From Longivirga aurantiaca (GTDB lineage Bacteria > Actinomycetota > Actinomycetes > S36-B12 > CAIYMF01): 32,000 nt of DNA. Positions 161-31,750 of the stretch are shown here, in pieces. The stretch lies in assembly GCF_042660085.1 (NCBI RefSeq), contig NZ_JBHSTI010000009.1:17410-49409 (forward strand). Reading direction: 5' to 3'. Made by a program: the position numbers and the translations under genes. The notes under the pieces were generated by a model. That model did no database searches. It worked only from the letters and a program-made list of their open reading frames with translations, and was not told the origin of the DNA. Position 1 is the stretch's first letter. Each line of letters starts with the position of its first letter.

Positions 161-1015
161 TCAGCCGGTCGGTGGCGGTGGTCTCCGGGCTCGGAGGAGG
201 CCTTCCTGGGCGGTCGTCGCGACGAGCCTGCCGTCCTGGCGGTAGACCCGACCCCAGGCAATCCCCCGCCCGCCTGCGGCGCCCGGCGACACCTGGTCGT
301 GCAGGAGCCAGTCGTCCACGCGCAAGTCGTGGAGGAACCACATCGAGTGGTCCAGTGTCGCGATGACGAAGCCGTGGGGCTGTGCGTCCTCGTCGGGGAG
401 GGGCACTGCCGCGAGCATGCTGAGGTCGCTGACGTAGGCGAGGACAGCCGCGTGCAGCAGAGGGTCGTCGGGGAGCTGCGCCGCCGCCCTGACCCACACC
501 TGCAGGGAGGGGTTCTCCTCGGTCACGGCATCGTCGTCGCAGCGCATCTCCAGCGCGGACCACTCGACGTGGGCGAGCGTTCCGTACCGGGCTCGTGAGG
601 CGAGCCTGCTGTGCCAGTTCGGCAGGGACTCCGGCGGTGCGGCGATCGGCATCGGAGCCTGGTGCTCGAGCCCCTCCTCCTGGTCCTGGAACGACGACGT
701 CATCGTGCAGAGAGCTGTCCCACCCTGGATGACGGTCGTGCGACGGGTGCTGAACGCCCTGCTCTCCCGGAGGTTCTCGACCCGGAGGACCACCGGCACA
801 GCCGGGTCGCCGCCGTGCAGGAAGTTCGCGTGCAACGAGTGCACCCGACGGGTTGGGCCCACAGTGCGGCCGGCGGCCATCAGAGCCTGCGCGACGACGA
901 GCCCGCCGAACATGCGGTGGTCGGATTCGTTGACTGCACGGCTGCGGAAGTGATCGGGGTCCAACTGCTCGAGGTCGAGGACCGCCAGCAGAGGTGCGAC
1001 CGAGGGCGATGTCAT
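161..1015 (-). CDS. tesB: Acyl-CoA thioesterase II
   Basis: The 284-aa ORF is collinear with E. coli TesB as I recall it (FGG.VV.QAL, H.FL..GD, FQ...G.EHQ..MP, ATLDHSMWF, QDG.LVA...QEG). Its ATG at 1015 overlaps the upstream gene's stop in ATGA. Confidence 0.9.
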   Translation of the reverse strand: MTSPSVAPLLAVLDLEQLDPDHFRSRAVNESDHRMFGGLVVAQALMAAGRTVGPTRRVHSLHANFLHGGDPAVPVVLRVENLRESRAFSTRRTTVIQGGTALCTMTSSFQDQEEGLEHQAPMPIAAPPESLPNWHSRLASRARYGTLAHVEWSALEMRCDDDAVTEENPSLQVWVRAAAQLPDDPLLHAAVLAYVSDLSMLAAVPLPDEDAQPHGFVIATLDHSMWFLHDLRVDDWLLHDQVSPGAAGGRGIAWGRVYRQDGRLVATTAQEGLLRARRPPPPTG

Positions 1016-1668
1016 GTTCCCCCGCGATCAAGGAGCAGGGGAAGCTCCCGCATGTCCCGGAACACGATGGCACCGAGGCTGGAGAGGGCGTCGTCCTCCT
1101 GGGTGGCCCCGGTGTAGGCGAAGCAGTCCATCGCAGCTGCCCGTGCAGCGCGGACACCCGTGATGCTGTCTTCGACCACGGCGCACGAGCTCGGCAGCGC
1201 GCCGAGCGACCTCGCCGCGTGGAGGAACAGATCGGGCGCGGGCTTGGGCTGTGCGACATCGCTCGCGACGAACACGGCGTTCTCGAACCGCTCGAGAAGG
1301 TTCACACGTCGGAGGTTTCGACGGGTCGTTGCGCGATCCCCGTTGGTTGCGACGCACATCGGGACCCCGATTCGTGCGAGCGCCTCGCTCACGCCGTCCA
1401 CTGCATGGAGGCGGGAGTCGAATGCCGCCTCGCAGCGGGAACGGAGCTCCTCCGCCCACCCCTGCTCGAGCCGATCGCCTAGCTCGTCCCGCACACCCGC
1501 CTGCCACTGGGTCGGGGTGCAACCGGAGAACCGGCGGCGCAGCTCGTCGGCCTCGACCTCCCAGCCGAGGGCCCGGAACATCTCGGCGCTGACCTCGGCG
1601 GCCAGCCGCTCGCTGTCCACGAGGACTCCGTCGCAGTCGAGGATGACGAGTGTGTACGGCGTGGGCAT
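1012..1668 (-). CDS. HAD-superfamily hydrolase (subfamily IA, phosphatase/beta-phosphoglucomutase-like)
   Basis: Taken from ORF 1012..1926, trimmed to the ATG at 1668 (MPTPYTLVILDCDGVLVDSE). HAD motif I is DCDGVL, motif II is ATNG and motif IV is VVEDSITG. The upstream 86 codons are Arg/Pro/Gly-rich and look like noise. Confidence 0.85.
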   Translation of the reverse strand: MPTPYTLVILDCDGVLVDSERLAAEVSAEMFRALGWEVEADELRRRFSGCTPTQWQAGVRDELGDRLEQGWAEELRSRCEAAFDSRLHAVDGVSEALARIGVPMCVATNGDRATTRRNLRRVNLLERFENAVFVASDVAQPKPAPDLFLHAARSLGALPSSCAVVEDSITGVRAARAAAMDCFAYTGATQEDDALSSLGAIVFRDMRELPLLLDRGGT

Positions 1669-1691
1669 GAGTCGGTGGCTCGGAGCGGCGG

Positions 1692-1883
1692 TCAGGAGAG
1701 CAGGCTGATGGCGAGCCGTGGGCAGGAGTCGATCGCGAGCGTGACGTCCTCCTCGAGCTCGAGGGGGACGTCGGCCGCCACTGCCTGGGTCGTGCCGTCG
1801 CCCGCCAGCACGAAGACGTCGGGGACCAGTCCACGGCAGACCCCGGCGGACTCGCAGAACTCCTGGTTCACGGTGGCACGCAC
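1692..1883 (-). CDS. Small single-cluster (3Fe-4S type) ferredoxin, probable P450 redox partner
   Basis: Three Cys in the pattern C-x5-C ... CP (VRATVNQEFCESAGVC ... IDSCPRLAI), typical of actinobacterial P450-linked ferredoxins. I prefer the GTG at 1883, which is preceded by GGGAG plus a 5-nt spacer. The ORF track extends to a TTG at 1895. Confidence 0.8.
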   Translation of the reverse strand: MRATVNQEFCESAGVCRGLVPDVFVLAGDGTTQAVAADVPLELEEDVTLAIDSCPRLAISLLS

Positions 1884-1924: not shown

Positions 1925-1964
1925 AACCAAGCGCTTGACAGACAATGGCGGGCCCGCCTAGTTT
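1925..1964 (+). promoter_or_regulatory. Operator/promoter site A: AACCAAGCGCTTGACA (palindrome core 1928-1937), -35 TTGACA 1935-1940, 18-nt spacer, -10 TAGTTT 1959-1964; faces the P450 operon and lies 45 nt upstream of the divergent ferredoxin start
   Basis: Read directly from the sequence. The same operator and spacing recur at 6616, 14529(-) and 27549. A minus-strand TACACT (1921-1916) is a possible -10 for the ferredoxin unit, with the palindrome in its spacer. Confidence 0.65.
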
Positions 1965-2072: not shown

Positions 2073-3323
2073 ATGTCTGGCGAATGCCCAGTCCGGCACG
2101 ACTTCCAGATGCTCGAGCAGTCGTTCGTGAAGGACCCGTACGCGACCTGCCCCGCCGTCCAGGAGTCGCCGGTCTTCTGGTCCTCCGACCTCGGCTGCTA
2201 CGTGGTGACGCGCTACGACGACGTGCAGCGGGTGCTGTCCGACCACGAGCTGTTCTCGAACGCGGCGACCAATGTGCCGGTGACCCCCATCAACGAGGAG
2301 GCGCAGCGGGTTCTCGACGAGAGCGAGGTGTGGTTCCGGCCCAACCTCACCAACGCGGACGCGCCGCGGCACACGATGGTCCGGCGCTGGGTGGCCGACG
2401 CGATGAGCCCTCGGCGGATCCGCGCCCTCGAGCCGGGCGTGCGCGCCTGGGCGTCCACCAAGGTGGACGAGATGGTGGCCAAGGGCCGCGCCGACATCTA
2501 CGCCGAGCTCTGCTTCCCGCTCCCGGCCATCACCGGCTTCACCCTCCTCGGGTTCCCGCCGGAGGACGTCGAGCAGCTCAAGTCCTGGTGCGACCGGCGG
2601 GTCGTGCTCACATACGGACGCGCGACGGGCGCCGAGCAGGTCGAGGTTGCTGAGAACGTGGCCGCCTTCTGGCGCTACACGAACGAGTTCGCCCAGTCGC
2701 GGATCGACGATCCCCGCGACGACCTCACGAGCGACATCATCAAGCACCACCTCGCCGACCCCGAGGAGTTCTCGCTGCGCGATGTGTCGGCCGTCCTGTT
2801 CGGGCTGTCGATCGCGGCGCACGAGACCACCACCAACCTGATGACCAACGGCGTCCGTCAGCTGCTCGCGCACCGCGAGCAGTGGGAGGCGCTGGTCGCC
2901 GACCCGACGCTGATCCCCAACACGATCGAGGAGTGCCTCCGATTCGACGGGCCCGTCATCGCGTGGCGGCGGCGCGCGACGGCCGACGTCGACGTCTCAG
3001 GGACGGTCATCCCCAAGGACTCGGTCGTCCTGATGCTGCTCTACTCGGCGAACCACGACCCGCGCCGCTTCGACGACGCCGGCAGCTTCGACATCCGCCG
3101 CCCCGAGGCCCGTTACCACCTGACGTTCGGCAAGGGCACCCACTTCTGCGCCGGCGCGCCGATGGCCCGCATGGAGATGAAGATCCTGCTCGAGAACCTG
3201 ATCGAGAAGGCTCCCGGGATGCGGCTGGTCGAGGATCAGGCGCTGGAGTTCATCCCCAACATCTCCCAGCGGGGCCCGCACGGCCTCGTCGTCGACTTCG
3301 AACCGGCCCTCACCCACGCCTGA
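2073..3323 (+). CDS. Cytochrome P450 monooxygenase
   Basis: Heme-thiolate loop [15 protein letters not shown]-helix AAHETTT, K-helix EECLR. The start ATG at 2073 ([11 protein letters not shown]) is preceded by GAGGAG. The P450 family cannot be assigned by eye. Confidence 0.93.
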
Positions 3324-3379
3324 TCCGGTGGCCGGCGCCGCCGCGCGTCACCGTCGTACCTCACCTGGAGCCCTCACCC

Positions 3380-4579
3380 ATGCGCGAAGCAGCAGTCATC
3401 TCCACCGCCCGCACGCCCATCGGCAAGGCGTATCGCGGTGCCTTCAACGACACGCAGGGCCAGGCGCTGGCGGCGCATGCCATCGCGCACGCGGTGGCGC
3501 GAGCCGGCATCGACCCGGCTGAGATCGAGGATGTGGTTCTCGGCTGCGCACTTCCGGAGGGTTCCACGGGGCTCAACGTCGCGCGGCAGGGAGCCATCCG
3601 CGCGGGCCTGCCGGTGACCGTGTCGGGGATGACGATGGACCGGCAGTGCTCGTCGGGCCTCATGGCCATCGCGACGGCGGCCAAGCAGATCGTGGTGGAC
3701 GGCGTGCGTGTGGCCGTCGGCGGCGGTGTCGAGTCGGTCTCCCTCGTCCAGAACGAGCACCAGAACAAGTTCCGCATGCAGGACCCCTGGCTGGACGAGC
3801 ACCGACCCGACATCTACATGCCGATGCTGTACACCGCGGAGATCGTGGCCGAGCGGTACGGCGTCACCCGTGAGATGCAGGACGAGTTCAGCGCGCAGTC
3901 ACAGCAGCGGGCGGCTGCCGCCGCGGCCCGCGGAGTGTTCGACGACGAGATCGTGCCGATCACCGTGACCAAGCTCGTGCGCGACAAGGCCACCGGAGAG
4001 ACGAGCGCGGTCGAGGTGACCCTGTCGCAGGACGAGGGCATCCGCGGCGAGACCACCGTCGAGACCCTGTCGGCGCTGCGGCCGGTGCTCCCCGACGGTG
4101 CGGCGTCGCAGGTGTCGACCGTGACGGCCGGCAACGCCTCGCAGCTCTCGGACGGGGCGGCGGCGGTGGTCCTCATGGAGGCGCAGGAGGCGTCCAGCCG
4201 GGGCATCACCCCGCTCGGCTTCTACCGGGGCATCGCCGTCACGGGCTGCGCACCCGACGAGATGGGGATCGGGCCCGTGACGGCCATCCCCAAGCTCCTG
4301 GCGCAGCACAGCCTGAAGATCGAGGACATCGGGGTCTGGGAGCTCAACGAGGCGTTCGCGTCGCAGGCCCTCTACTGCCGCGACTTCCTGGGCATCGACC
4401 CCGAGCTGTTCAACCCCAACGGCGGCGGGATCGCCGTCGGCCACCCCTATGGCATGACCGGCGCCCGGCTGGTCGGGCACGCGCTCCTGGAGGGGAAGCG
4501 CCGCGGCGCCCGCTACGTCGTCATCTCGATGTGCGTCGGCGGCGGCATGGGTGCTGCCGGCCTGTTCGAGGTGGCCTGA
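3380..4579 (+). CDS. Acetyl-CoA C-acyltransferase (degradative thiolase, FadA-like)
   Basis: [23 protein letters not shown]-terminus, active-site Cys in DRQCSSGL, then [15 protein letters not shown] and [14 protein letters not shown]. Trimmed from ORF 2882..4579, whose 5' extension overlaps the P450 gene. Confidence 0.93.
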
Positions 4580-4629
4580 CCCGCGATGTCGACCGGCAGC
4601 AACCACGAGCGGAACCGGAGGACGGCGAG

Positions 4630-5316
4630 GTGAGCGCGAGCCGATCGGTGCCGTCGGTCGGAGTGCGCGGCGTGGTCTTCGACTACGGCGGCGTCCTCAC
4701 CACACCGGTCGGCGACTCCATCCGTGCCTGGCTCGCGCGGGCGGCGATCGAGCCGTCCAGCTTCTCCCGGACGCTGAAGGAGTGGCTGTCGAGGGATGCG
4801 CCGTCAGGGACCCCGGTGCACAGGCTCGAGACCGGCGCGCTCAGCGTGGACGAGTTCAACGTCCTGCTCGCCGAGCGCCTGGTCCGTCTGGACGGTAGCC
4901 CCGTGGAGCCCGACGGGCTGCTGAAGGGCCTGTTCGCCGACGTGCGTCCCGACCCGGCCATGATCGGCCTGGTCGAGCGACTGTCGGCGAACGGCGTCGA
5001 GGTGGCGCTTCTGTCGAACAGCTGGGGGAGCGACGACTACCCCTGGGACGTCGTCGACCGGCTCTTCCGCACGACCGTCATCTCCGGCCGCGACGGCGTG
5101 CGCAAGCCGGATCGCGAGTCCTTCGCACTGGTGCTCGACAGGATGGGTCTCGGCGCCGACGTCACTGTCTTCGTCGACGACGCCGAGCCCAACGTCCTCG
5201 GTGCCCGCAGGGTGGGCATGCGCGCCATCCACCATGTCGACGCCGCGTCGACACGTGCCGAGCTCGAGGAACTCATCCCTGCACTGACCGTCGACCTCAC
5301 CGAGGAGAGCACGTGA
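4630..5316 (+). CDS. HAD-superfamily hydrolase (epoxide-hydrolase-N-terminal-like phosphatase subgroup)
   Basis: Motif I variant VVFDYGGVLT, then LLSNS and FVDDAEPNV. GTG at 4630 is preceded by GGAGGA. The stop overlaps the next gene's GTG (GTGA). Confidence 0.8.
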   Translation: MSASRSVPSVGVRGVVFDYGGVLTTPVGDSIRAWLARAAIEPSSFSRTLKEWLSRDAPSGTPVHRLETGALSVDEFNVLLAERLVRLDGSPVEPDGLLKGLFADVRPDPAMIGLVERLSANGVEVALLSNSWGSDDYPWDVVDRLFRTTVISGRDGVRKPDRESFALVLDRMGLGADVTVFVDDAEPNVLGARRVGMRAIHHVDAASTRAELEELIPALTVDLTEEST

Positions 5317-6083
5317 CCGCCGCTGCCAGCCCTGCGACCCGCACAGCGATCGTGACCGGGGGTGCCCGAGGGATCGGTGCGGCCATCTCGCGCCGGCTCG
5401 CGGCCGACGGCCTCGCCGTGGCCGTGGTCGATCTGGATGAGAGCAGCTGCACGACCACGCTGGAGGCGATCCGCGCGGACGGTGGCACGGCTCTCGCCGT
5501 CGGCGCGGACGTCGCCGACGAGGCGAGCGTCGAGGCGGCCGTCGCGACGGTGGCCGACGAGCTCGGCGCGCCGTCCGTGCTGGTCAACAACGCCGGCATC
5601 ACGCGGGACAACCTGCTCTTCAAGATGACCGTGGACGACTGGGACAGCGTGATGGCCGTGCACCTGCGGGGCACCTTCCTCATGTCCCGCGCCGCGCAGA
5701 AGCACATGGTCGCGGCGGGCTTCGGTCGCATCGTGAACCTGTCGAGCGTGTCGGCCCTCGGCAACCGCGGCCAGGCCAACTACGCGGCGGCCAAGGCCGG
5801 GATCCAGGGCATCACCAAGACGCTCGCCATCGAGCTCGGCCGGTACGGCGTGACGGCGAACGCGATCGCGCCCGGATTCATCGAGACGGAGATGACGGCC
5901 GCGACCGCGGCGCGCATGGGGATGGACTTCGAGGAGGCCAAGCGCCTCGGTGCGGAGCAGATCCCCGTAGGTCGGGTCGGCCAGCCCGAGGACATCGCGC
6001 ACCTGGTGTCCTATCTCGTCAGCGAGGGTGCCGGCTTCGTCTCCGGACAGGTCATCTACGCCGCCGGAGGCCCGAAGACCTGA
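5313..6083 (+). CDS. SDR, 3-oxoacyl-ACP/CoA reductase (FabG-like)
   Basis: TGGARGIGAA, NNAG, NLSS and YAAAKAG (complete Ser-Tyr-Lys set). C-terminal GQVIYAAGG. Confidence 0.9.
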   Translation: MTAAASPATRTAIVTGGARGIGAAISRRLAADGLAVAVVDLDESSCTTTLEAIRADGGTALAVGADVADEASVEAAVATVADELGAPSVLVNNAGITRDNLLFKMTVDDWDSVMAVHLRGTFLMSRAAQKHMVAAGFGRIVNLSSVSALGNRGQANYAAAKAGIQGITKTLAIELGRYGVTANAIAPGFIETEMTAATAARMGMDFEEAKRLGAEQIPVGRVGQPEDIAHLVSYLVSEGAGFVSGQVIYAAGGPKT

Positions 6084-6116: not shown

Positions 6117-6572
6117 ATGCGCGTGTTCCGTACGTTCGACGAGCTCTCCGCCTCGGTGGGCGAGGTGCTCGGCAGCAGCTCCTGGCTCCTGGTGGACCAG
6201 GCGCGCGTCGATGCATTCGCCGAGTGCACCGGCGACCACCAGTGGATCCACGTCGATGTCGCGCGGAGCGAGGCCGGCCCGTTCGGAGGCACCATCGCGC
6301 ACGGCTTCCTGACCCTCTCGCTGATCCCGGCGCTGCAGGCCGAGGTCTTCGTGCTCGAGACCCCCGGGCCGAAGCTCAACTACGGCGTGAACAAGCTGCG
6401 CTTCCCGGCCCCGCTGCTCGTGGGGCGACGCGTGCGCGACACGTGCACGTTGCTCGAGGTCACCGAGCTTCCCGCCGGCCGCCAGGTCGTCGTGCGCCAC
6501 GTCGTGGAGATCGAGGGCGAGGGCAAGCCGGCGCTGGTCGCCGACGCCGTCGCGCTGCTCCTCAACGTCTGA
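6117..6572 (+). CDS. MaoC-like (R)-specific enoyl-CoA hydratase / dehydratase
   Basis: 151-aa single hot-dog protein with FAECTGDHQWIHVD ... GGTIAHGFLTLS, the hydratase-2 motif region. Confidence 0.85.
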   Translation: MRVFRTFDELSASVGEVLGSSSWLLVDQARVDAFAECTGDHQWIHVDVARSEAGPFGGTIAHGFLTLSLIPALQAEVFVLETPGPKLNYGVNKLRFPAPLLVGRRVRDTCTLLEVTELPAGRQVVVRHVVEIEGEGKPALVADAVALLLNV

Positions 6573-6615: not shown

Positions 6616-6655
6616 TACCAAGCGCTTGACAGAGTGATTCGCGTCGCACTAACGT
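6616..6655 (+). promoter_or_regulatory. Operator/promoter site B: TACCAAGCGCTTGACA (core 6619-6628), -35 TTGACA 6626-6631, 18-nt spacer, -10 TAACGT 6650-6655; drives the monooxygenase operon
   Basis: Read directly. The 16-mer is identical to the reverse complement of 14514-14529. The -10 context CACTAACGTCCGGG (6647-6660) closely matches CACTAGCGTCCGAG at 27570-27583. Confidence 0.7.
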
Positions 6656-6736
6656 CCGGGCCAAGGTCGAGTCCGGGCTCGCGAAGCTGTCCCGGCCGCC
6701 GTGCGCTGCACTGCGGCCCCATCGAACGAGGAGACT

Positions 6737-7945
6737 GTGGTGACGACGTACGCCGGCGAGGACCAGCAGACCAAGCGTCTCGAGACTGCCCGCGAGATCG
6801 GACACGTGCTCAACCGTGAGGCCGAGGCGGGCACGGAGGCCGGTCAGATCACTGACGCGGTCGTGCAGGCGATCCTCAGCTCCGGGCTGCTGAGCATCGG
6901 CGTCGCCCAGGCTGTCGGTGGCGAGCAGTGCTCGTACGCCGAGTGGGCCGCTGTGCTGGAGGAGCTCTCCCGCGCCGACGGGTCGGCCGGGTGGAGCTTC
7001 ATGGCCACCAGCAGCCACGCTGCGGCCTTCAGCTCCGTGCTCCCGGACGCCGGGGTGCAGAGCTACTACGCAGGCGGTCGCCCGCCCGTGATCGCCGGCA
7101 TGCCCGCGCCCCGCGGACGCGCCGAGCGGGTCGAGGGCGGCTACATGTTCACGGGCAAGCACCAGTTCGCCTCCGGATCCGCCCTCGCCGACCACTTCGT
7201 CGGCGGCGGCGTCGTGTTCGGCGCGGACGGCGAGCCGATCATGGCCGACAACGGCGTCCCGGAGATGGTCGCGGTGATCATCCCTCGCGACAAGGTTCGT
7301 CTCATGGGCAACTGGAACGTCACCGGCCTCGAGGGCACGGCCAGCATCGACTTCGAGATCGGACCGATCTTCGTCGAGGAGGACAAGGTCGTCCACGTCA
7401 ACCCGTGGCCGACCACCGTCTACCGCGGTACCTCGTTCTGGGCGCTGGGAGTTGAGATCCTCGGCCCATTGGGCCACTGCGCGCCCGCGCTCGGCGTCTC
7501 CAAGCGAGCGCTCCAGGAGGTGGCCGCCCTGGCTCCCACGCGCAAGCGCGTGGACGCGGCCTTCCCGACGGTCGGCGACCAGCCGCTGTTCCGTCACGAC
7601 CTGGTCGCCCGCTGGGCGGACTGGCAGGCCACCCACCTCCTGTGGGACGACCTGCTCGTGCGCCTCGACGACTGGACCGCCAACAACGACGCGCAGCCTC
7701 CGCGCGAGCTGGTCGACCGGGCCAAGTACGTCGCCCGGCACATCCACGACACCGCTCTCAAGTGCGTCGACTTCGCCTACCACTGGTCGGGCACGGTCGG
7801 TCTTCGCTCGGAGGGCGTGGTCGGCCGCTGCTTCCGCAACGTCCACGCCATGGACGTGCACATCGCCGTGGACCGCAACAACTACGTCGTCGCCGCGGAC
7901 AGCGTGATGCCCCTCCTGGGCGAGGGCGCGCACGACTTCGACTAG
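6737..7945 (+). CDS. ACAD-fold flavin-dependent monooxygenase, oxygenase component (HsaA/DszC/HpaH-like group D)
   Basis: ACAD-like fold without acyl-CoA dehydrogenase motifs (GWSFMATSSH, NWNVTGLEGTASIDF, C-terminal FRNVHAMDVH). A flavin reductase lies in the same operon. The start GTG at 6737 is preceded by GAGGAG; the ORF track begins at 6701. Confidence 0.75.
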   Translation: MVTTYAGEDQQTKRLETAREIGHVLNREAEAGTEAGQITDAVVQAILSSGLLSIGVAQAVGGEQCSYAEWAAVLEELSRADGSAGWSFMATSSHAAAFSSVLPDAGVQSYYAGGRPPVIAGMPAPRGRAERVEGGYMFTGKHQFASGSALADHFVGGGVVFGADGEPIMADNGVPEMVAVIIPRDKVRLMGNWNVTGLEGTASIDFEIGPIFVEEDKVVHVNPWPTTVYRGTSFWALGVEILGPLGHCAPALGVSKRALQEVAALAPTRKRVDAAFPTVGDQPLFRHDLVARWADWQATHLLWDDLLVRLDDWTANNDAQPPRELVDRAKYVARHIHDTALKCVDFAYHWSGTVGLRSEGVVGRCFRNVHAMDVHIAVDRNNYVVAADSVMPLLGEGAHDFD

Positions 7946-11568: not shown

Positions 11569-11581
11569 AGGGGGCAGTCCT

Positions 11582-23370: not shown

Positions 23371-23409
23371 GGCAGCCTCCCGTGCTTCGAGTGGTGGATC
23401 GGGTCGCGG

Positions 23410-24645: not shown

Positions 24646-24658
24646 GTCGGCTCCTGGC

Positions 24659-25804
24659 TCAGAGGGCGAGCGACTGCAGCAGCCGCTCGCGGTGGAAGGC
24701 GGGGGAGCCGAGCGCGACTCGGGACGCGAGGGCGCGGCGGTAGTAGCGGTGCGCCTGGTGCTCCCACGTGAACCCGATGCCGCCGTGGATCTGGATCGTC
24801 TCCAGCGCCGCCAGGTAGAACGTCTCGGAGCACACGACACCGGAGATCGAGGCGGCTTCGGCGCGCTGTCGCGGATCCGCCGGCGCGGCAGAGACGGCGT
24901 ACTCGACCGCGGAGGCGGCGGTGTCGATGGAGATCGCCAGATCGGCCAGCCTGTGCTGCAGCGCCTGGAACGACCCGATGGGCTGGCCGAACTGGAAGCG
25001 GGTCGAGGCGTAGGCGACGGTGAGGTCGAGGAGGTGACGACTCGCCCCCAGCTGCTCGCACGCCGCGGCCGCCACCGCCGCATCGAGCACCGGAGCGAGG
25101 AGGTCGTCGCAGCGGCCGACAGCACCGACCAGTCGCGCCGGTGTGGACTCCAACCTCAGCAGTGCCTGCGGCCTGGTGGTGTCCACGACGGACATGGCAG
25201 AGCGGGAGAGGCCGCGGGCGTCCGACGCCACCAGGAACCAGCCGTGCTCGTCGTCGGAGGTTCGGGCCAGCAGAAGGATCGCGTCGGCCACTGTGCCGTA
25301 GGGGACGAAGGGCTGGTCGCCGGTCAGGACCCAGGCGCCGTCGACGCCGAGCTCGGCGGCGACGGCCGACCGGCTCACCGGCGCGAGAACGGAGTCGTCG
25401 CCCAGCGCGACAGCGACGACCGTGCTGCCGTCGACGATCCCGGGCAGGATGTCGCCGGCAGCGCCTTCGTCCCCGGCGGCGAGGACCAGCGTCACCGCCA
25501 CGACGCAGCTCGGGGCGAACGGCACGCACGCCAGACTGCTGCCGAGCGCCTCCAGCACGACACGCGCCTCCGCCCACCCGAGGCCGAGCCCGCCGTGCGC
25601 CTCGGGAACCAGCACGCCGGTGACGCCGAGGTCCTGTGCCAGCGTGCGCCACAGCGGGGCGTCGAGGCCGTCGAGGCCGTCGGCCACCGCGGCCACGCGC
25701 TCGATGGGGGACTCGGCAGCCAGCACCGATCGCACGGCTTCGGCCATCGAGCGCAGCTCGTCCGTCGGCTCCGTCAGCAGCAGCGCGCCGGCTGTGGTGC
25801 TCAT
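24659..25804 (-). CDS. Acyl-CoA dehydrogenase-family protein, degenerate (non-FAD-binding type) subunit
   Basis: ACAD N- and C-terminal signatures are present (PEAHGGLGLG; IQIHGGIGFTWEHQAHRYYRRA), but the S/T-E-P-x-x-G-S-D motif and both usual catalytic-Glu positions are missing. ATG at 25804 overlaps the CoA-ligase stop (ATGA). Confidence 0.8.
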   Translation of the reverse strand: MSTTAGALLLTEPTDELRSMAEAVRSVLAAESPIERVAAVADGLDGLDAPLWRTLAQDLGVTGVLVPEAHGGLGLGWAEARVVLEALGSSLACVPFAPSCVVAVTLVLAAGDEGAAGDILPGIVDGSTVVAVALGDDSVLAPVSRSAVAAELGVDGAWVLTGDQPFVPYGTVADAILLLARTSDDEHGWFLVASDARGLSRSAMSVVDTTRPQALLRLESTPARLVGAVGRCDDLLAPVLDAAVAAAACEQLGASRHLLDLTVAYASTRFQFGQPIGSFQALQHRLADLAISIDTAASAVEYAVSAAPADPRQRAEAASISGVVCSETFYLAALETIQIHGGIGFTWEHQAHRYYRRALASRVALGSPAFHRERLLQSLAL

Positions 25805-27354
25805 GTGGTGCTCCACAGCTCGCGCAGAGCGTCCTTCTTCACCTTCTGGGAGGCGTTCCGGGGGAGCTCGTCGAGGAAGCGGACCGAGGTCGGCTTCTTG
25901 AAGCTCGCCATGTGCTCCTTGGCGAAGGCCACGACGTCCTCCTCCGTGATGGCAGATCCCGGGCGCCGGACGACCGCGGCCGCCACGGTCTCACCCCACT
26001 TGTCGTGCGGGACGCCGAACACCGCGATCTCCGCGATGCCGTCCAGCTCCCGGAGTACCCGCTCGACCTCCGCCGGGTACACGTTGGCGCCGCCGCTGAC
26101 GATCATGTCGCGCTTGCGGTCCACGATGTAGGCGTATCCCTGGTGGTCGACCCACCCGACGTCACCCGTCAGATAGCGGCCGTCCTTGAATGCCGCTGCC
26201 GTCTGCTCGGGGTTGTTCCAGTAGCCGGCGAAGATGGTGTCCTGCTCGACGGCGAACTCCCCGACGTGCTCGCGTCCGCGTGGGAGGACGTTGCCGTCGT
26301 CATCGAGGACGAACAGCCGTGTGGTAGGTGCCGGGCGCCCCACCGTCGCCCAACGGTCCTCTGCCGTCCCGAGGCCGATCGCATCGTTGCGCGTCAGGCA
26401 GGTGAGCGCGCCGACGATCTCCGTCGCCCCCCAGCCGTGGAAGTACTTGTCGCCGACGAGGTCGACGATCTTCCGGATCTCGGCGGGAGTGGCTGCCGAT
26501 GCGCTGTGGTTCAGCGTCTCGAGGTGTGCGATGACGTCGGGGTAGTCCCGCGCCTTCTCGACGAACCGGTCGATCAGAGGGCTCGGGCAGTACGTGAACG
26601 TCGTGCGGTCCTGCCGCATGGTCTCGAACCACGAGTCGACCGTGTAGTCGCGGATGAGGTTGACCATCCCGCCGACGTACAGGTGCGGGAGGATGATGGT
26701 CCACCAGGGGGCGGCGTACCCGAGCCCGCCGATGTAGGCGAGCCTGCTGTAGTGCGGGACGCGCAGAACCCCGACGCTCGAGCGGACGCAGAGGACCAGC
26801 GTCGACTGCGTGACCATGGCGCCCTTGGGGAATCCGGTGGTTCCGCTCGTGTACCCGATGATCGCAAGGTCATCGGGCAGCGACTCGTGGAGGGCGAGAG
26901 CCGGTTCGGCGGCCTCGAGGGCCGCGGCGTAGTCGAGCCTGTTGCCCGACGGCGACTCGGACGGTGCTAGGTGCAGGACGACGTCGATGGTCGCAGCTGT
27001 GGGTGCTCCGGCGACGGAGGCTCGGACTCCATCGGTGTGCACCAGCCCGCGCGCCCCGGAATCACGCAGGACGTGGTCGAGCTCGGAGGCCTTGAACCCA
27101 GCGTTGACGGGCACGATGACCAGACCGGCGATCGTGATCCCCATGAGGACTTCGACCGCTTCGGCGCAGTTCTCCAGCATCAAGAGCACGCGGTCGCCCG
27201 GCTGGAGGCCGCGCGACCGCAGCACGTTGGCGACGCGCGCGGCGTTGAGCAGGACGTCGGCGTACGTGCGATCGCCGTTCACGGACCGGACCGCGGTCAG
27301 CTCGCTGTGACGCTCGCAGCTTCGCACGAGCATCCCGCCGAGGGTGTCCTGCAC
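25801..27354 (-). CDS. Acyl-CoA synthetase (AMP-forming, ANL superfamily)
   Basis: YTSGTTGFPKGA, GWGATE, TGDVGWVDHQGYAYIVDRKRDMIVSGGANVYP, PRNASQKVKK. GTG at 27354 follows GGAGGGAG plus 7 nt. The ORF track extends to 28113. Confidence 0.9.
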   Translation of the reverse strand: MQDTLGGMLVRSCERHSELTAVRSVNGDRTYADVLLNAARVANVLRSRGLQPGDRVLLMLENCAEAVEVLMGITIAGLVIVPVNAGFKASELDHVLRDSGARGLVHTDGVRASVAGAPTAATIDVVLHLAPSESPSGNRLDYAAALEAAEPALALHESLPDDLAIIGYTSGTTGFPKGAMVTQSTLVLCVRSSVGVLRVPHYSRLAYIGGLGYAAPWWTIILPHLYVGGMVNLIRDYTVDSWFETMRQDRTTFTYCPSPLIDRFVEKARDYPDVIAHLETLNHSASAATPAEIRKIVDLVGDKYFHGWGATEIVGALTCLTRNDAIGLGTAEDRWATVGRPAPTTRLFVLDDDGNVLPRGREHVGEFAVEQDTIFAGYWNNPEQTAAAFKDGRYLTGDVGWVDHQGYAYIVDRKRDMIVSGGANVYPAEVERVLRELDGIAEIAVFGVPHDKWGETVAAAVVRRPGSAITEEDVVAFAKEHMASFKKPTSVRFLDELPRNASQKVKKDALRELWSTT

Positions 27355-27534: not shown

Positions 27535-27578
27535 AATCAAGCGCCCGGTTGACAATGCGCTTCGGCGGCCACTAGCGT
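27535..27578. promoter_or_regulatory. Variant (split) operator F in the divergent promoter region: AATCAAGCGC-CCGG-TTGACA-AT-GCGCTT; + strand -35 TTGACA 27549-27554, 18-nt spacer, -10 TAGCGT 27573-27578 (LLM operon); possible minus-strand -35 TTGATT (27540-27535) for the CoA-ligase operon
   Basis: Read directly. The left half-site TCAAGCGC (27537-27544) and GCGCTT (27557-27562) bracket the -35 instead of abutting each other. Confidence 0.55.
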
Positions 27579-27636: not shown

Positions 27637-28491
27637 GTGGACATCGGCGTGATGACGCTGCTCACCGACGAGAGCTCGTCGCCGTACGAGGTCGCCCGAG
27701 CTCTCGAGGTCCGCGGCTTCGAGTCCCTGTTCATCGGCGAGCACACGCACATGCCGCACGTCCCGGCCACGGAGTACCCGGGCGAGCGCGGGGAGCTGCC
27801 CCCGGGGGTCAATCGCACGTACGACCCGTGGACCGCACTCATGGCAGCAGCGACGGCCACCAGCCGCCTGAGGCTCGGCACCAGCATCTGCGAGCTGGCC
27901 GTCTACGACCCGATCCTGCTGGCGAAGGTGATCGCGTCGGTCGACCGGCTGTCGGGCGGCCGACTGGTCCTGGGCCTCGGCTACGGCTGGAACGTGCCGG
28001 AGATCGAGAACCACGGGGTCGCGTTCGCCGATCGTCGCGATGTTCTCCACGAGAACCTCGAGGCCATGACGGCGATCTGGACCCAGGACGTCGCGAGCTA
28101 CTCCGGTCAGCACGTCTCGTTCGACCAGATCCTGTGCTGGCCCAAGCCGCTCCAGTCACCACGGCCGCCTGCCCTGCTGGGAGCCACCGGGCCGAAGGGG
28201 CTGGCAGCCGCCGTCGCCTACTTCGACGGCTGGATGCCGACGGGTTACGACAACTTCGTCCGTGGGCTCCCGCTGCTCCGGCAGGCCTGCGAGGCGGCGG
28301 GCCGCGACATCAGCACGGTGCGCATCACCGTCACGGATCGGCATCCCGATTCAGAGCGGATGGCCTTCTACGCCGAGAACGGCGCCGAGCGCCTCATCGT
28401 GTCCAAGGTCATGACCCAGTTCACCCCGGCCACTCTGGATCGCGAGCTCGACACGCTCGCGGCCGTGGTGGGCGAGCACCTTCATCCGTAA
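27637..28491 (+). CDS. LLM-class (luciferase-like) flavin/F420-dependent oxidoreductase
   Basis: MDIGVMTLLTDES ... FESLFIGEHTHMP ... RLRLGTSICELAVYDPILLAKVIASVDRLSGGRLVLGLGYGW is typical of actinobacterial LLM F420-dependent oxidoreductases. GTG at 27637 follows GGGAGG. Confidence 0.85.
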   Translation: MDIGVMTLLTDESSSPYEVARALEVRGFESLFIGEHTHMPHVPATEYPGERGELPPGVNRTYDPWTALMAAATATSRLRLGTSICELAVYDPILLAKVIASVDRLSGGRLVLGLGYGWNVPEIENHGVAFADRRDVLHENLEAMTAIWTQDVASYSGQHVSFDQILCWPKPLQSPRPPALLGATGPKGLAAAVAYFDGWMPTGYDNFVRGLPLLRQACEAAGRDISTVRITVTDRHPDSERMAFYAENGAERLIVSKVMTQFTPATLDRELDTLAAVVGEHLHP

Positions 28492-28536
28492 GTCCGATCC
28501 GACCCGCCCCGGCGGGTCATGACATGGGAGTCACGC

Positions 28537-29856
28537 GTGGCGTGGGATTTCGAGACCGAGCCTGAGTTCCAGGAGAAGCTCGACTGGATGAACGAGTTCG
28601 TCCGCAACGAGGTCGAGCCGCTGGACCTGGTCATCCGCAACGTCTGGAACGTGGCCGACCCGATCCGCAACGAGCTCATCAAGCCGCTTCAGGACGTCGT
28701 TCGGGCGAAGGGGCTGTGGGCGTGCAATCTCGGCCCCGAGCTGGGAGGTGCAGGCTACGGCCAGCTCAAGCTCGCGCTGATGAATGAGATTCTCGGCCGC
28801 ACCGTCGCCGGGCCCGTGGTCTTCGGCAGCCAGGCGCCGGACTCCGGCAACGCGGAGATCCTCGCGCACTACGGAACCCCGGAGCTGAAGGAGCGCTACC
28901 TCGAGCCGCTCCTGCGCAACGAGATCGTCTCCGCCTACTCGATGACCGAGCCCACGGGCGGTTCGGACCCGACGAACTTCAAGACCAAGGCGGTCCTCGA
29001 CGGAGACGAGTGGGTGATCACGGGCGAGAAGTGGTTCAGCTCGCACGCCAACCTGGCTGACTTCATCATCGTGCTCGCCGTCACCGACCCCGACGCCGAG
29101 CCGCACAAGAACTCGTCGATGTTCGTCCTTGCGCGTGACACCCCCGGCGTCGAGATCATCCGCGGCATTGCGCCGTGGGGCCACCCCGACTCGGACGCCA
29201 CGCACTGCTATGTCCGCTACAACGATGTGCGGATCCCGGCCAGCAACATCCTGGGCCCGCGCGGCGCCGGGTTCGCCGTCGCGCAGACGCGTCTGGGCGG
29301 TGGTCGCGTCCATCACGCCATGCGTGCGGTCGGCGTGGCCCAGAAGGCCTACGACATGATGGTCGAGCGCTCGGTGAGCCGGTCGACGAAGAACGGCTCG
29401 CTCTCCAGCCGGCAGCTCATCCAGGAGATGATCGCGGACTCGTGGATCGAGATCGAGCAGTACCGCCTTCTCGTCATGCGCACCGCCTGGCGCATCGACA
29501 AGTACAAGGACTACCTCAAGGTCCGCAAGGACATCGCGGCGGTCAAGGCGGTCATGCCGATCATGCTGCGCAGCGTGGTCTCGCGGTCGATCCAGGTCCA
29601 TGGCTCGATCGGCATCTCGACCGAGATGAGCCTCGGCAAGTGGCTCATCGAGAGCTACGGGCTCGGCCTAGCCGACGGTGCCACGGAGATCCACAAGCTC
29701 AACCTCGCGCGCGAGCTGCTCAAGGGCGCCGTACCCGCGCCGGACGTCTTCCCGAGTCAGCACCTGCTCCGTCTGCGAGCCGCCGCCGTCGAGAAGTACG
29801 GCGACGTGCTCGGCCCGGACGTCGACCTTCCCTCGCCCGGAGGTTCCTTCGGATGA
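28537..29856 (+). CDS. Acyl-CoA dehydrogenase-family protein, ACAD10/11-FadE2-like (Asp in place of the canonical C-terminal catalytic Glu)
   Basis: AWDFETEPEFQEKLDWMNEFV N-terminus, YSMTEPTGGSDP, GEKWFSSHA, QVHGSIG, and LADGATEIHK where MCAD-type enzymes have IYEGTSEIQR. GTG at 28537 follows GGGAG plus 6 nt. An in-frame ATG at 28519 is the alternative, as in the ORF track. Confidence 0.88.
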   Translation: MAWDFETEPEFQEKLDWMNEFVRNEVEPLDLVIRNVWNVADPIRNELIKPLQDVVRAKGLWACNLGPELGGAGYGQLKLALMNEILGRTVAGPVVFGSQAPDSGNAEILAHYGTPELKERYLEPLLRNEIVSAYSMTEPTGGSDPTNFKTKAVLDGDEWVITGEKWFSSHANLADFIIVLAVTDPDAEPHKNSSMFVLARDTPGVEIIRGIAPWGHPDSDATHCYVRYNDVRIPASNILGPRGAGFAVAQTRLGGGRVHHAMRAVGVAQKAYDMMVERSVSRSTKNGSLSSRQLIQEMIADSWIEIEQYRLLVMRTAWRIDKYKDYLKVRKDIAAVKAVMPIMLRSVVSRSIQVHGSIGISTEMSLGKWLIESYGLGLADGATEIHKLNLARELLKGAVPAPDVFPSQHLLRLRAAAVEKYGDVLGPDVDLPSPGGSFG

Positions 29857-30935
29857 CGACGTCTGAAGTTCCGGGATTCACCGAGGTCGCGCCCGTCCGT
29901 CCGGGTGAGGACCTCGACTGGGTCGCGCTCGAGCGCTACCTCCGGGACACCATCCCGGGGCTCGTGGGCGAGTTCTCGGTGCTTCAGTTCCCCAACGGAT
30001 CGGCCAACCTCACCTATCGGGTCGCCTTCGGCGACCGACAGCTGGTCGTCCGTCGTCCGCCGCTGGGCCAGCTGGCCATCGGTTCGCACGACATGAAGCG
30101 TGAGCACCGAGCCCTGTCGGGGCTGTGGGTGGCCTACGACCGTGCACCGAAGCCGTTGGCGTACACCGACGATGTGAGCATTGTCGGCGCCGAGTTCCTC
30201 GTCATCGAGTACCGCTCGGGCGTCGTCATCTGGGGAAGCGACACGGTGCCGCCGGTGATCAGGGCCATGCCGGACCACGGCCATCGCATCGGCATGTCGC
30301 TCATCGACGCGCTGATCGACCTGCACCTGGTCGACATCCACCACACGGGGCTGATCAACCTCGGCAAGCCCGAGGGGTTCCTCGAGCGACAGCTCCGTGG
30401 GTGGCGCCGGCGTTGGGACGCCGTCTCGGACGTCGGCCCCGACCACCCGCTGATGGAGGGGCTCGCCGACCGGCTGTTCGAACGCGTCCCCGTCTCGCCG
30501 CCGCCGACCGTCCTGCACAACGACTTCAAGCTCGACAACTGCCAGTTCTCCTCGGAGAGCCCCGATCGCGTGATCTCCGTGTTCGACTGGGACATGGCCA
30601 CGGTGGGCGATCCGCTCGTAGATCTGGGGACGCTCCTGAACTACCTCCCTGACCCCGACGGCCAGGAGCTCGAGCGCGTCGCGATCCCCGGGCTGGAATC
30701 CCTCGGCCTTCCCTCGCGGCAGACGATCGTGGAGCGCTACGCGGCCCGCACCGGCACGGACGTCGGGTCGATCCACTGGTACGAGGCCTACGGCATCTGG
30801 AAGACGGCCGTGATCATGCAGCAGCTCTACGCTCGGTACGCCCGGGGTGAGACGTCCGACGAGCGGATGGGCACACGGGCGGACCGCATGGACGGCGTGG
30901 CCGCCCGGGCGCTCGATCTGCTCGGCGGAGGGTGA
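29853..30935 (+). CDS. Phosphotransferase-family (APH/ChoK-like) kinase
   Basis: FPNGSANLTYRV (nucleotide-binding region), Brenner motif LHNDFKLDN, then VFDWDMATVGDPLVDLG. ATG at 29853 overlaps the ACAD stop (ATGA). Trimmed from ORF 29175..30935. Confidence 0.88.
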   Translation: MTTSEVPGFTEVAPVRPGEDLDWVALERYLRDTIPGLVGEFSVLQFPNGSANLTYRVAFGDRQLVVRRPPLGQLAIGSHDMKREHRALSGLWVAYDRAPKPLAYTDDVSIVGAEFLVIEYRSGVVIWGSDTVPPVIRAMPDHGHRIGMSLIDALIDLHLVDIHHTGLINLGKPEGFLERQLRGWRRRWDAVSDVGPDHPLMEGLADRLFERVPVSPPPTVLHNDFKLDNCQFSSESPDRVISVFDWDMATVGDPLVDLGTLLNYLPDPDGQELERVAIPGLESLGLPSRQTIVERYAARTGTDVGSIHWYEAYGIWKTAVIMQQLYARYARGETSDERMGTRADRMDGVAARALDLLGGG

Positions 30936-30940
30936 CGCGC

Positions 30941-31750
30941 ATGGCTGAGTTCGACCCGGCGATCCGTGAGGCGGACGAGACGAGACTCGACGAGCCGTCC
31001 GACTTCGCGTTCCTCACCTGGACCGTCCAGGACCGGATCGCCACGGTCGTGATGAGCCGGCCACCGGTCAACGCGGTCAACCAGCGCATGTACCGGGAGC
31101 TGCACCGGCTCTTCACGCAGGTGGACCGCTTCCTGGTCGGCTCCTCGGTCGTCGTCCTCCTCGCGGACGGAAAGCACTTCTGCGGAGGCAACGATCTGGG
31201 CGAGTTCGCCACCATGACCTCCGACAATGCCCGGGAGCGCATGTACCACGCGCGCGAGGCCTTCTACGCGATCATGGACTGCCCTCTCCCGACGGTGGCC
31301 GCGGTCCAGGGGGTGGCAACCGGCACCGGGATCGGCATCGCCTCGTCGTGCGACGTCGTGATCGCGGCAGACGACGCCCGCTTGGGGCTCACCGAGGTCA
31401 AGGTCGGGGTGATGGGTGGCCCGCGCCACCTGGCGAGGATGCTGCCTCAGCACATCGTTCGCTACATGTTCCTCACGGGCGAGCTCATGGCCGCACCCGA
31501 GATGGCTCGGCTCGGCGGCATCCTCGAGGCGGTGCCGGCGGACAAGCTGAGGGAGCGGGCGCACGAGATCGCTGCCCTGATGGCCCGCCATGATCCGCTC
31601 GTGCTGCGCACCGCCAAGTTGGCCATGAACGAGGTCGAGGAGATGGACCTCCGCGTCGGGTACGAGCGTGAGCAGAGCCGTACCCTGGAGCTCGCGGATC
31701 GACCCGAGCGCAAAGAGGCCCTGCAGCGGTTCTTCGACAAGGGCGCCTGA
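30941..31750 (+). CDS. Enoyl-CoA hydratase/isomerase (crotonase family)
   Basis: VVMSRPPVNAVN, HFCGGNDLGEF, VAAVQGVATGTGIGIASSCDVVIA. The alternative start GTG at 30932 overlaps the kinase stop (GTGA). Confidence 0.85.
   Translation: MAEFDPAIREADETRLDEPSDFAFLTWTVQDRIATVVMSRPPVNAVNQRMYRELHRLFTQVDRFLVGSSVVVLLADGKHFCGGNDLGEFATMTSDNARERMYHAREAFYAIMDCPLPTVAAVQGVATGTGIGIASSCDVVIAADDARLGLTEVKVGVMGGPRHLARMLPQHIVRYMFLTGELMAAPEMARLGGILEAVPADKLRERAHEIAALMARHDPLVLRTAKLAMNEVEEMDLRVGYEREQSRTLELADRPERKEALQRFFDKGA

Follow-up and report, generated by a model that had tools for sequence, protein, structure and literature searches.

A 32,000-nucleotide stretch of the Longivirga aurantiaca genome (hereafter the window; C9:17410-49409 of a 3.67-Mb assembly in 71 contigs) holds a catabolic gene island of about 30 kb. 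The island encodes an ATP-binding cassette (ABC) importer, an acyl-CoA ligase, enzymes of beta-oxidation-type families, and a kinase whose gene overlaps that of an atypical acyl-CoA dehydrogenase (ACAD). A preliminary description of this DNA proposed that the island takes up and degrades a lactone-bearing or alicyclic lipid through phosphorylation of a 4-hydroxyacyl-CoA, with its operons under one operator. Here we report that the island is one co-inherited unit found across families, that its promoters share an operator resembling that of KstR2, and that the kinase and ACAD are best read as a predicted 4-hydroxyacyl-CoA phosphorylation and elimination module.

Gene content of the island

As GC makes up 69% of the window, third-position GC served to place the genes; their names come from Pfam and NCBIfam, and coordinates are collected in Table 1. 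At the start of the window a minus-strand block encodes a TesB-type thioesterase, a haloacid dehalogenase-type (HAD) hydrolase and a 67-residue ferredoxin. It is followed by two plus-strand operons. The first runs in the order cytochrome P450, thiolase, HAD hydrolase, short-chain dehydrogenase/reductase (SDR) and MaoC; the second encodes a flavin monooxygenase, a metallo-beta-lactamase-fold (MBL) hydrolase, an SDR, a flavin reductase, a vicinal oxygen chelate (VOC) protein, two tandem SDRs and an aldo-keto reductase (AKR). Two divergent pairs come next: a long SDR on the minus strand faces a crotonase on the plus strand, and a medium-chain dehydrogenase/reductase (MDR), again on the minus strand, faces the ABC importer genes and a SnoaL_4 gene behind them. 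A minus-strand operon then carries an ANL ligase, two ACADs, an SDR and two further SnoaL_4 genes. Divergent from it, the last plus-strand operon encodes a luciferase-like monooxygenase-class (LLM) protein, the atypical ACAD, a kinase of the aminoglycoside phosphotransferase (APH) fold and a crotonase. In all, the window holds seven SDRs, two crotonases and three SnoaL_4 proteins of the NTF2 fold. Every part named in the preliminary description is present in this map. The island has an importer and a CoA ligase of its own, and its beta-oxidation-type families are complete; as the preliminary description had also stated, the window contains no ferredoxin reductase, Mce-type importer or IpdAB genes.

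Conservation and probable mobility

A collection scan with the importer's binding protein as query found the island in a Marmoricola metagenome-assembled genome (MAG; G041, island locus L008, on a 53.7-kb contig). The binding protein is 75% identical there, and the contig keeps the island order from the P450 to the last crotonase, with proteins 65-93% identical. On a JGI metagenome contig (L016) the binding protein is 60% identical and the order is kept from the MBL to the kinase, at 53-84% protein identity; a second JGI sample (L017) contains the same binding protein as L016 in the same gene context. On an ENA contig, ERZ1758453, the Pfam order matches through the terminal crotonase. The order of more than 20 genes thus recurs in four other metagenomic assemblies, which amount to three sequence-distinct versions, at 53-93% protein identity.

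Relatives of the host gave a different result. A DNA search of 40 of them did not find the island and returned scattered single-gene matches only, and no match to the binding protein turned up in 62 further genomes from the host's family. A search of plasmids gave only 34%-identical matches from Streptomyces. Contig C9 has a tetranucleotide distance of 17.2, where 50-kb chunks of the main contig average 6.4; this compositional outlier fits horizontal acquisition.

The copies are not identical in content. TesB, both HAD hydrolases and the ferredoxin are missing or decayed in the Marmoricola copy and are therefore accessories outside the conserved core. The preliminary description had counted TesB and the P450's ferredoxin as pathway parts; they are present in the window, but they do not belong to what the copies share. 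The copies also differ in the MDR gene, in where the flavin reductase lies and in two of the three SnoaL genes. Across the four other assemblies, with their three distinct versions, only the first SnoaL_4 gene stays beside the gene of the binding protein. Where the window has tandem SDR paralogues (10798-12352), the JGI and ENA copies have a single gene, so the duplication is recent.

The flanks of the Marmoricola copy (L013 and L014, the latter G041:C199:34800-53699) carry genes of their own. Upstream of its P450 it has, in addition, a quinone reductase that depends on F420H2, a regulator with TetR_C_24, SDRs, a crotonase and, together with a flavin reductase, a second monooxygenase of the Acyl-CoA_dh_2 family. 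On the other flank an extra ANL ligase is followed by an open reading frame (ORF) with an integrase-core-like tail, which hints at mobility.

A shared operator

The 10-mer CAAGCGCTTG occurs exactly four times in the window (sites A to D), and these are its only copies in the entire assembly; all four lie in promoter regions. When one mismatch is allowed the window has six matches, where 0.70 are expected, and six were reached in none of 100 shuffles. With the variants at 27538 (site E) and 16393 added to the exact sites, every transcription unit has a site. Together with their flanks the copies read ACCAAGCGCTTGAC, or end in ...GAT instead.

At sites A, B and C (C being read towards the minus-strand SDR) the right half merges into a TTGACA -35 box, and 18 nt past this box the sequence offers a TAnnnT candidate for the -10 element. 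Site E, which reads CAAGCGCCCG-GTTGACA, has the same TTGACA-N18-TAnnnT pattern. Repressor sites commonly overlap the -35 box in this way. The published operator consensus of KstR2 is AnCAAGnnCTTGnT (PMC3068626). Site D fits it at all 10 specified positions and sites A, B and C at 9 of 10, and a genome-wide scan found no further KstR2-like sites elsewhere.

Operator copies stand at orthologous promoters in both other loci with readable DNA, the Marmoricola MAG and L016. The long-centre form of site E (CAAGCG-CCCG-nTTG) is itself kept at all three loci (27538-27554 of the window, L008:16697 and L016:17784), which suggests a different binding mode or a second regulator.

Could the island nevertheless be a mosaic of unrelated neighbouring operons that share no substrate? 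The parts that differ between copies (TesB, the HADs, the ferredoxin, the MDR, two SnoaL genes and the place of the flavin reductase) would be at home in such a mosaic, as would the atypical composition of the contig. Against this, more than 20 genes keep their order in the four other assemblies (three distinct versions), at 53-93% protein identity, the operator stands at the same promoters in both copies whose DNA was read, and it is missing from the rest of the genome. The mosaic is largely refuted by synteny and the shared operator, and we give it hardly any credence. The recurring gene order and operator positions, with no island found in 62 other genomes of the host family, indicate instead one co-inherited, probably horizontally mobile regulon, and the claim that the operons share one operator is supported.

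The regulator

A TetR-like open frame of 46 residues begins after the last crotonase and runs off the end of the contig. C9 and another contig, C5, end in the same 67 nt, so the break in the assembly falls within two paralogous regulator genes. A search of all contigs, with a scan of their ends for a helix-turn-helix motif, did not find the rest of the gene; C5 alone shares the last 67 nt. We examined C5 as a possible paralogous island and rejected it.

About 6 kb upstream of its P450 the Marmoricola MAG encodes a TetR protein that combines a TetR_N and a TetR_C_24 domain. The best solved relatives of this regulator in a search of the Protein Data Bank (PDB) are FadR-like, DarR and KstR2 chains; it aligns to KstR2 over the full length, but at only 53 bits, below the FadR-like and DarR chains. 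These proteins form the acyl-CoA-sensing branch of the TetR family.

A more distant transporter operon (41% related) on another JGI contig (L019; JGI 3300050227, 5085-7168) is preceded by two TetR_C_24 regulators and the palindrome CAATCGAACGATTG; behind it lie three ANL ligases, an LLM and hydantoinase A/B genes. Its palindrome differs from that of the island, and we rejected a common operator for the two loci.

Is this a steroid regulon?

The fit to the KstR2 consensus raises the question of whether the substrate is derived from a steroid: a hydrindane (HIP-like) or bile-acid-like alicyclic acid, degraded by a divergent offshoot of the KstR2 regulon for the last two steroid rings. Besides the operator and the full-length, if weak, alignment of the Marmoricola TetR to KstR2, the best-scoring named models point in this direction. 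They are IpdE2 for the small ACAD, the FadD3 family for the ligase, EchA19 for a crotonase and, for the two monooxygenase components, HsaA/HsaB. A further point on this side is that BaiE, a bile-acid dehydratase, is among the SnoaL_4 proteins; our own PDB sequence search with the SnoaL_4 proteins gave marginal matches to dioxygenase beta subunits only.

All of these model scores are far below the equivalog cutoffs. FadD3 scores 254 bits against a cutoff of 657, IpdE2 158 against 450 and EchA19 264 against 400. The monooxygenase at 6701-7945 scores 99.7 against 450 for HsaA; in the PDB it matches Rv3094c and HsaA at 74 and 60 bits, and an ESM Atlas search returned its own family only. The P450 is closest to the heme domains of CYP116B-type enzymes and to 5gwe/5xjn, and not to the steroid CYP125/CYP142 group. 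IpdAB, KshAB, KstD, HsaC/D and Mce genes are missing from the window, and the genome has no other KstR2-like sites. The CoA-transferase pair upstream of the island was considered as IpdAB and rejected, because it passes the ScoA and ScoB subfamily cutoffs and is of ScoAB/PcaIJ type. A steroid-derived substrate is quite unlikely on this evidence.

The kinase and acyl-CoA dehydrogenase module

The start codon of the kinase overlaps the stop codon of the ACAD, and the ACAD-kinase order is kept in the Marmoricola locus, L016 and the ENA contig. Mouse ACAD11 (8v3u) and the mycobacterial protein 4hr3 match the ACAD at 237-239 bits, whereas ordinary ACADs of the MCAD/SCAD type reach 137 bits or less. 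A catalytic Asp, an HCMR motif and an upstream Arg are features specific to ACAD10/11 and LvaC (PMC12440821). In the island protein LADGATEIH aligns with LADGPDEVH of mouse ACAD11, placing Asp where ordinary enzymes have the catalytic Glu. RLGGGRVHHAMR aligns with RLGPGRIHHCMR, and both Arg residues are kept, including the counterpart of R626 of mouse ACAD11. The HCMR motif reads HAMR, the change of Cys to Ala being found in 4hr3 as well.

The kinase belongs with the same proteins. Its PDB matches are 9o56 (the best, at 260 bits), 3dxp and the kinase domain of ACAD11. The family is marked by an HxDxK..N loop, a DW[E/D] motif and an Arg that replaces the beta-3 Lys (bioRxiv 10.1101/2025.09.10.675409). 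HNDFKLDN, FDWDM and VVRRPPLG of the island kinase align with the 9o56 counterparts of the catalytic loop, the metal motif and this Arg; the metal motif reads DWD, not DWE.

Split bacterial kinase/ACAD pairs can replace the domains of ACAD10 in vitro and perform the reaction (PMC11342911). This precedent, together with the hallmarks of both proteins, makes a 4-hydroxyacyl-CoA phosphorylation and elimination reading well founded for the module. Judged by these hallmarks, phosphorylation of a 4-hydroxyacyl-CoA followed by phosphate elimination is the best reading of the pair at 28519-30935, as the preliminary description had proposed when it assigned the gamma-hydroxyl to the kinase and the atypical ACAD. 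The gene layout leaves no room for a small LvaB-like gene between the overlapping ACAD, kinase and crotonase genes, a statement about spacing, since no LvaB similarity search was made.

The host has other genes of this type. An SDR-kinase-ACAD module resembling lva lies at C62:1895-4993 and is 39-41% identical to the island pair, and a further ACAD10/11-like gene without a kinase lies at C8:3476-4660. With these copies elsewhere, the island pair is a dedicated paralogue.

The island kinase might instead act on a free alcohol, such as an alkylglycerol or some other lipid built on glycerol or a polyol. In that case the island would serve to salvage or break down glycerol lipids with ether or ester links that a polyol-type importer brings in, with the CYP116-like P450 or the flavin monooxygenase cleaving the ether and the HADs serving as phosphatases. 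Prokaryotic homologues of the ACAD10 kinase do phosphorylate chimyl alcohol (bioRxiv 10.1101/2025.09.10.675409), and 9o56, the top match of the island kinase, carries exactly the HYDxK and DWE motifs given in that preprint. The ribose/polyol-binding fold of the binding protein and the two HAD hydrolases also suit such a pathway. The activity reported in vitro often depends on acetyl-CoA, however, which points to a CoA pocket, and the island kinase is coupled in translation to an ACAD in which HxMR and the Arg that handles phosphate are preserved. Both HADs are absent from the Marmoricola copy, and the many SDR and SnoaL genes would be left unexplained. We consider this alternative very unlikely, and a 4-hydroxyacyl-CoA remains the more probable substrate of the module.

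The importer

The importer consists of a fused ATPase with two ABC_tran domains, a BPD_transp_2 permease and a Peripla_BP_4 binding protein of the cluster-B type. The binding protein has an LAAC lipobox and conserved cysteines. Its predicted model (pLDDT 85.9) finds ribose- and galactofuranose-binding proteins as top folds, at 15-22% identity. Few proteins belong to its family, which counts 47 in 5.8 billion at E<=1e-30.

Its neighbours are not those of a sugar transporter. In five of the six genomic contexts that we read, the binding protein stands among acyl-CoA ligases, ACADs, LLMs or esterases and not among sugar genes; the sixth has esterase, cupin and SDR neighbours. Relatives at 41% identity adjoin other CoA ligases, LLMs, TetR_C_24 regulators, MBL and Amidohydro_2 hydrolases, esterases and a gene resembling a Baeyer-Villiger monooxygenase (BVMO). 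An organic acid or lactone fits these contexts as ligand better than a sugar.

Tailoring enzymes and the lactone question

The LLM was first taken for an oxidative tailoring enzyme. It scores 226.8 bits against a cutoff of 166.9 for TIGR03619, a family of F420-dependent LLM oxidoreductases, and the host CofD (C2:641074-642045; 357.6 bits against a cutoff of 257.45) would supply F420. By family, a reductase or dehydrogenase is more likely than an oxygenase. Since the LLM heads the kinase operon in every copy seen, it is an attractive idea that it may make the 4-hydroxyl from a 4-oxo group. The VOC protein was considered as an extradiol ring-cleavage dioxygenase and rejected; its best matches are glyoxalase I and methylmalonyl-CoA epimerase.

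The MBL hydrolase most likely starts at 8059, not 7942. Its HLHFDH metal site is intact and it has no signal peptide. The preliminary description called it AiiA-type; the motif is there, but AiiA scores 37.7 bits against a cutoff of 375, and the scores for the other lactonase models are also far below their cutoffs (AidB 106 against 360, YtnP 53.9 against 425). The protein is nearer to methyl parathion and dihydrocoumarin hydrolases. The solved structures that it matches best, at 83-104 bits, include OPHC2 and methyl parathion hydrolase, together with the reconstruction of a dihydrocoumarin hydrolase and an acyl-homoserine lactone (AHL) lactonase. Lactonase activity is plausible but not specific.

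These relatives bear on a more particular proposal: that the substrate is a lactone (a gamma-lactone, butenolide or terpenoid lactone) or a cyclic ketone made into one, which the MBL opens to the 4-hydroxy acid used by the kinase route. In its favour are the intact metal site, the dihydrocoumarin hydrolase ancestor and AHL lactonase among the solved relatives, a type I BVMO 17 kb upstream on the same contig, and a 41%-identical binding protein on a Nocardioides contig that lies among MBL, Amidohydro_2, beta-lactamase-type esterase and BVMO-like genes. Phosphotriesterases belong to the same MBL clade, though, and the region around the BVMO lacks the operator and has no counterpart in the Marmoricola copy. 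A 4-hydroxyacyl-CoA could equally come from reduction of a 4-oxo group, as in levulinate catabolism, or from shortening of a hydroxy acid. We therefore regard a lactone as a tentative possibility, and rather an improbable one; the evidence for a lactone or alicyclic substrate, which is gene content, is only circumstantial.

The upstream region (C9:1-17409) holds a second catabolic set: the type I BVMO (323-2086), an SCPx-type thiolase, an LLM, an SDR, an ANL ligase, a cyclase-family hydrolase, a SnoaL_4 protein, another SDR, the ScoAB CoA-transferase and an HpcH/CitE-like lyase. Behind it come genes for a PQ-loop protein, for a PNPOx protein and for RibBA, the last of these a second copy. The island operator does not occur anywhere in C9:1-17409, and the Marmoricola copy lacks this gene set.

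Table 1. Genes and operator sites of the window (positions count from its first nucleotide)
Feature	Position	Strand	Basis and remarks
TesB-type acyl-CoA thioesterase II, accessory	161..1015	-	Pfam Acyl_CoA_thio/4HBT_3; 63-aa remnant in Marmoricola MAG G041
HAD-family hydrolase, DCDGVL motif I, accessory	1012..1668	-	Pfam Hydrolase/HAD_2; no match in G041
Small single-cluster ferredoxin (67 aa), divergent from P450	1692..1895	-	Pfam Fer4_15/Fer4_13; 26-aa remnant in G041
Operator site A	1928..1937		CAAGCGCTTG running into TTGACA -35 box; kept upstream of G041 P450
Cytochrome P450	2040..3323	+	Pfam p450; PDB search; 82% ortholog in G041
Thiolase (acetyl-CoA C-acyltransferase), true start near 3380	3320..4579	+	Pfam Thiolase_N/C; NCBIfam PRK07108 596 vs 615 bits cutoff
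Second HAD-family hydrolase (maximal ORF), accessory	4531..5316	+	Pfam Hydrolase; absent in G041
FabG-like SDR	5313..6083	+	Pfam adh_short_C2
MaoC-type (R)-hydratase	6117..6572	+	Pfam MaoC_dehydratas
Operator site B	6619..6628		CAAGCGCTTG; kept in G041 with one mismatch
Group-D flavin-dependent monooxygenase, oxygenase component, distantly HsaA-like	6701..7945	+	Pfam Acyl-CoA_dh_2
Cytoplasmic MBL-fold hydrolase, HLHFDH intact; candidate lactonase/esterase	8059..8916	+	Pfam, NCBIfam, PDB search
SDR	8926..9684	+	Pfam
Flavin reductase, predicted partner of oxygenase at 6701	9681..10193	+	Pfam Flavin_Reduct; HsaB/HpaC-like below cutoffs
VOC/glyoxalase-fold protein	10254..10796	+	Pfam, NCBIfam, PDB search
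Two tandem SDR paralogues	10798..12352	+	Pfam
AKR	12377..13357	+	Pfam
Long SDR, PRK07791-like below cutoff	13395..14399	-	Pfam, NCBIfam
Operator site C, SDR/crotonase divergent region	14517..14526		CAAGCGCTTG; kept in Marmoricola locus L008 and JGI contig L016
Crotonase, PRK08252 subfamily, above cutoff	14524..15333	+	Pfam, NCBIfam
Zinc-ADH/quinone-oxidoreductase-type MDR	15376..16344	-	Pfam
Operator variant near MDR gene start	16393..16402		CAAGCGCCCG
Operator site D, upstream of ABC importer	16624..16633		CAAGCGCTTG; complete match to AnCAAGnnCTTGnT; kept in L008 and L016
CUT2-like ABC importer: fused double ATPase, one permease, lipoprotein substrate-binding protein	16733..20800	+	Pfam; lipobox LAAC
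Three SnoaL_4 NTF2-fold genes	20831-21475, 21472-22053, 22050-22598	+, -, -	Pfam
SDR of ligase operon	22603-23370	-	Pfam
ACAD, large-subunit-like	23410-24645	-	Pfam; operon PimC/PimD and IpdE2-like, below cutoffs
ACAD, small-subunit-like	24659-25816	-	Pfam; operon PimC/PimD and IpdE2-like, below cutoffs
ANL acyl-CoA ligase (operon 22603..27354)	25801-27354	-	Pfam
Operator variant E, ligase/LLM divergent region	27538..27554		CAAGCGCCCG, CAAGCG-CCCG-GTTG, into TTGACA; kept in L008 and L016
Predicted F420-dependent LLM-class oxidoreductase, TIGR03619 family, first gene of kinase operon	27637..28491	+	NCBIfam
ACAD10/11-LvaC-type ACAD-fold enzyme (Asp for catalytic Glu, HAMR, upstream Arg)	28519..29856	+	Pfam, PDB alignment
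APH-fold kinase, ACAD10/11-LvaA family (HNDFKLDN, DWD)	29853..30935	+	Pfam, PDB search
Crotonase overlapping kinase stop	30932..31750	+	Pfam, NCBIfam
N-terminus (46 aa) of TetR-like regulator, cut by contig end	31861..31998	+	Sequence

Discussion

What does the island do? On balance, and with modest confidence, we think it a co-regulated unit of about 30 kb that imports an oxygenated organic acid and degrades it by way of CoA esters, under control of a TetR/KstR2-type repressor and with a 4-hydroxyacyl-CoA kinase/eliminase step. From the gene families, the operator, the conservation and the hallmarks of the module we infer the activities, step order and substrate class as follows. A TetR-type repressor most likely binds the 14-bp KstR2-type palindrome that overlaps the -35 boxes and, by analogy with its relatives, would sense an acyl-CoA. 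Once the genes are derepressed, the repurposed sugar-type (CUT2-like) importer would take up the oxygenated acid or its lactone. The P450, the two-component flavin monooxygenase and the many SDR, AKR and MDR redox enzymes would tailor the compound, the MBL hydrolase may open an ester or lactone bond, and the ANL ligase would activate the acid to its CoA ester. The heteromeric ACAD, crotonases, MaoC, SDRs and thiolase would then shorten the chain. Removing a gamma-hydroxyl that would block beta-oxidation is the presumed task of the LLM-ACAD-kinase-crotonase operon: the kinase would phosphorylate the 4-hydroxyacyl-CoA, the ACAD10/11-type enzyme would eliminate the phosphate to give a 2-enoyl-CoA, and the crotonase would hydrate the product. 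The F420-dependent LLM may generate the 4-hydroxyl from a 4-oxo group.

Several points weigh against this proposal. Nearly all of the island enzymes score far below every NCBIfam equivalog cutoff. Prokaryotic ACAD10-type kinases also phosphorylate 1-O-alkylglycerols in vitro, often only with acetyl-CoA (bioRxiv 10.1101/2025.09.10.675409), which makes the substrate of the island kinase less certain than had been assumed. The regulator gene is truncated in the assembly, and its pairing with the operator is one that we infer; the spacer of site E is 4 bp longer than at the other sites, and the same dimer may not bind there. TesB, both HADs and the ferredoxin are not conserved. Finally, the unusual composition of C9 means that its placement in this genome is not fully certain, as a binning error is possible; the upstream scoAB genes count against such an error, being 86-90% identical in DNA to a copy on a core contig.

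Part of the original scheme survives. The single co-regulated unit, the kinase/ACAD module and the importer, ligase and beta-oxidation set are supported; the LLM as an oxygenase, the MBL as an AiiA-type enzyme in the strict sense and TesB and the ferredoxin as core components are not.

A bolder version of the proposal, which we hold to be unlikely, is that the island is a previously undescribed, horizontally transferred regulon for a class of natural product without a linked pathway. A ribose-fold importer would here serve CoA-activatable acids, the F420-dependent LLM would replace the LvaD-type SDR as 4-oxoacyl-CoA reductase, and a KstR2-type repressor would act outside steroids, together making up an F420-linked route for 4-hydroxy acids.

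The kinase/ACAD module itself is not new. What is new here is a split ACAD10/11-type module inside a conserved, probably mobile island that is controlled from KstR2-type operators and has a sugar-fold importer. If our proposal is true, the ACAD10/11-type route for 4-hydroxyacyl-CoA does not stand alone here but forms part of a large mobile catabolic island, acyl-CoA catabolism makes use of a rare branch of the sugar-type ABC binding proteins, and KstR2-type operators govern pathways beyond steroid degradation. A compact, conserved island with a clean operator is also a practical system for substrate discovery and reporter building.

Comparison with known systems

The closest parallels to the module are Pseudomonas putida's lva operon (LvaABCDE) and mammalian ACAD10 and ACAD11. 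In all of these an APH-fold kinase adjoins an ACAD-fold enzyme with Asp, HxMR and a phosphate-handling Arg, and the expected chemistry is the conversion of 4-hydroxyacyl-CoA through 4-phosphoacyl-CoA to 2-enoyl-CoA. Like the lva operon, the island has an acyl-CoA ligase and a candidate ketoreductase within the same regulon. The mammalian proteins, through which animals deal with 4-hydroxy fatty acids, are fused, whereas the island kinase and ACAD are separate genes. The lva operon has five genes, whereas the island module sits among 30 kb of others that include an importer, a P450 and a flavin monooxygenase, and its operon starts with an F420-dependent LLM and not with an SDR.

The KstR2 regulon of Mycobacterium and Rhodococcus, which serves steroid C/D-ring (HIP) degradation, shares with the island a 14-bp palindrome fitting AnCAAGnnCTTGnT in divergent promoter regions and the control of a CoA ligase, a heteromeric ACAD, crotonases, SDRs and a thiolase; the regulator of the Marmoricola copy has TetR_C_24 and aligns, though weakly, to KstR2. 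Unlike that regulon, the island has an ABC importer, a P450 and the kinase/ACAD module, lacks equivalog-level IpdAB, IpdC, FadD3, EchA20 and FadE30-33, and has the centre of its operator fixed as a CG dinucleotide.

The island MBL has the HxHxDH metal motif of the clade of methyl parathion hydrolase, dihydrocoumarin hydrolase and AidB, but it is cytoplasmic and falls below every NCBIfam lactonase cutoff. The importer resembles the CUT2 type (RbsABC) in its fused double ATPase, BPD_transp_2 permease and Peripla_BP_4 protein of the ribose-binding fold. It differs in that its binding protein is only 15-22% identical to solved sugar binders, belongs to a rare family and keeps company with genes of the acyl-CoA type.

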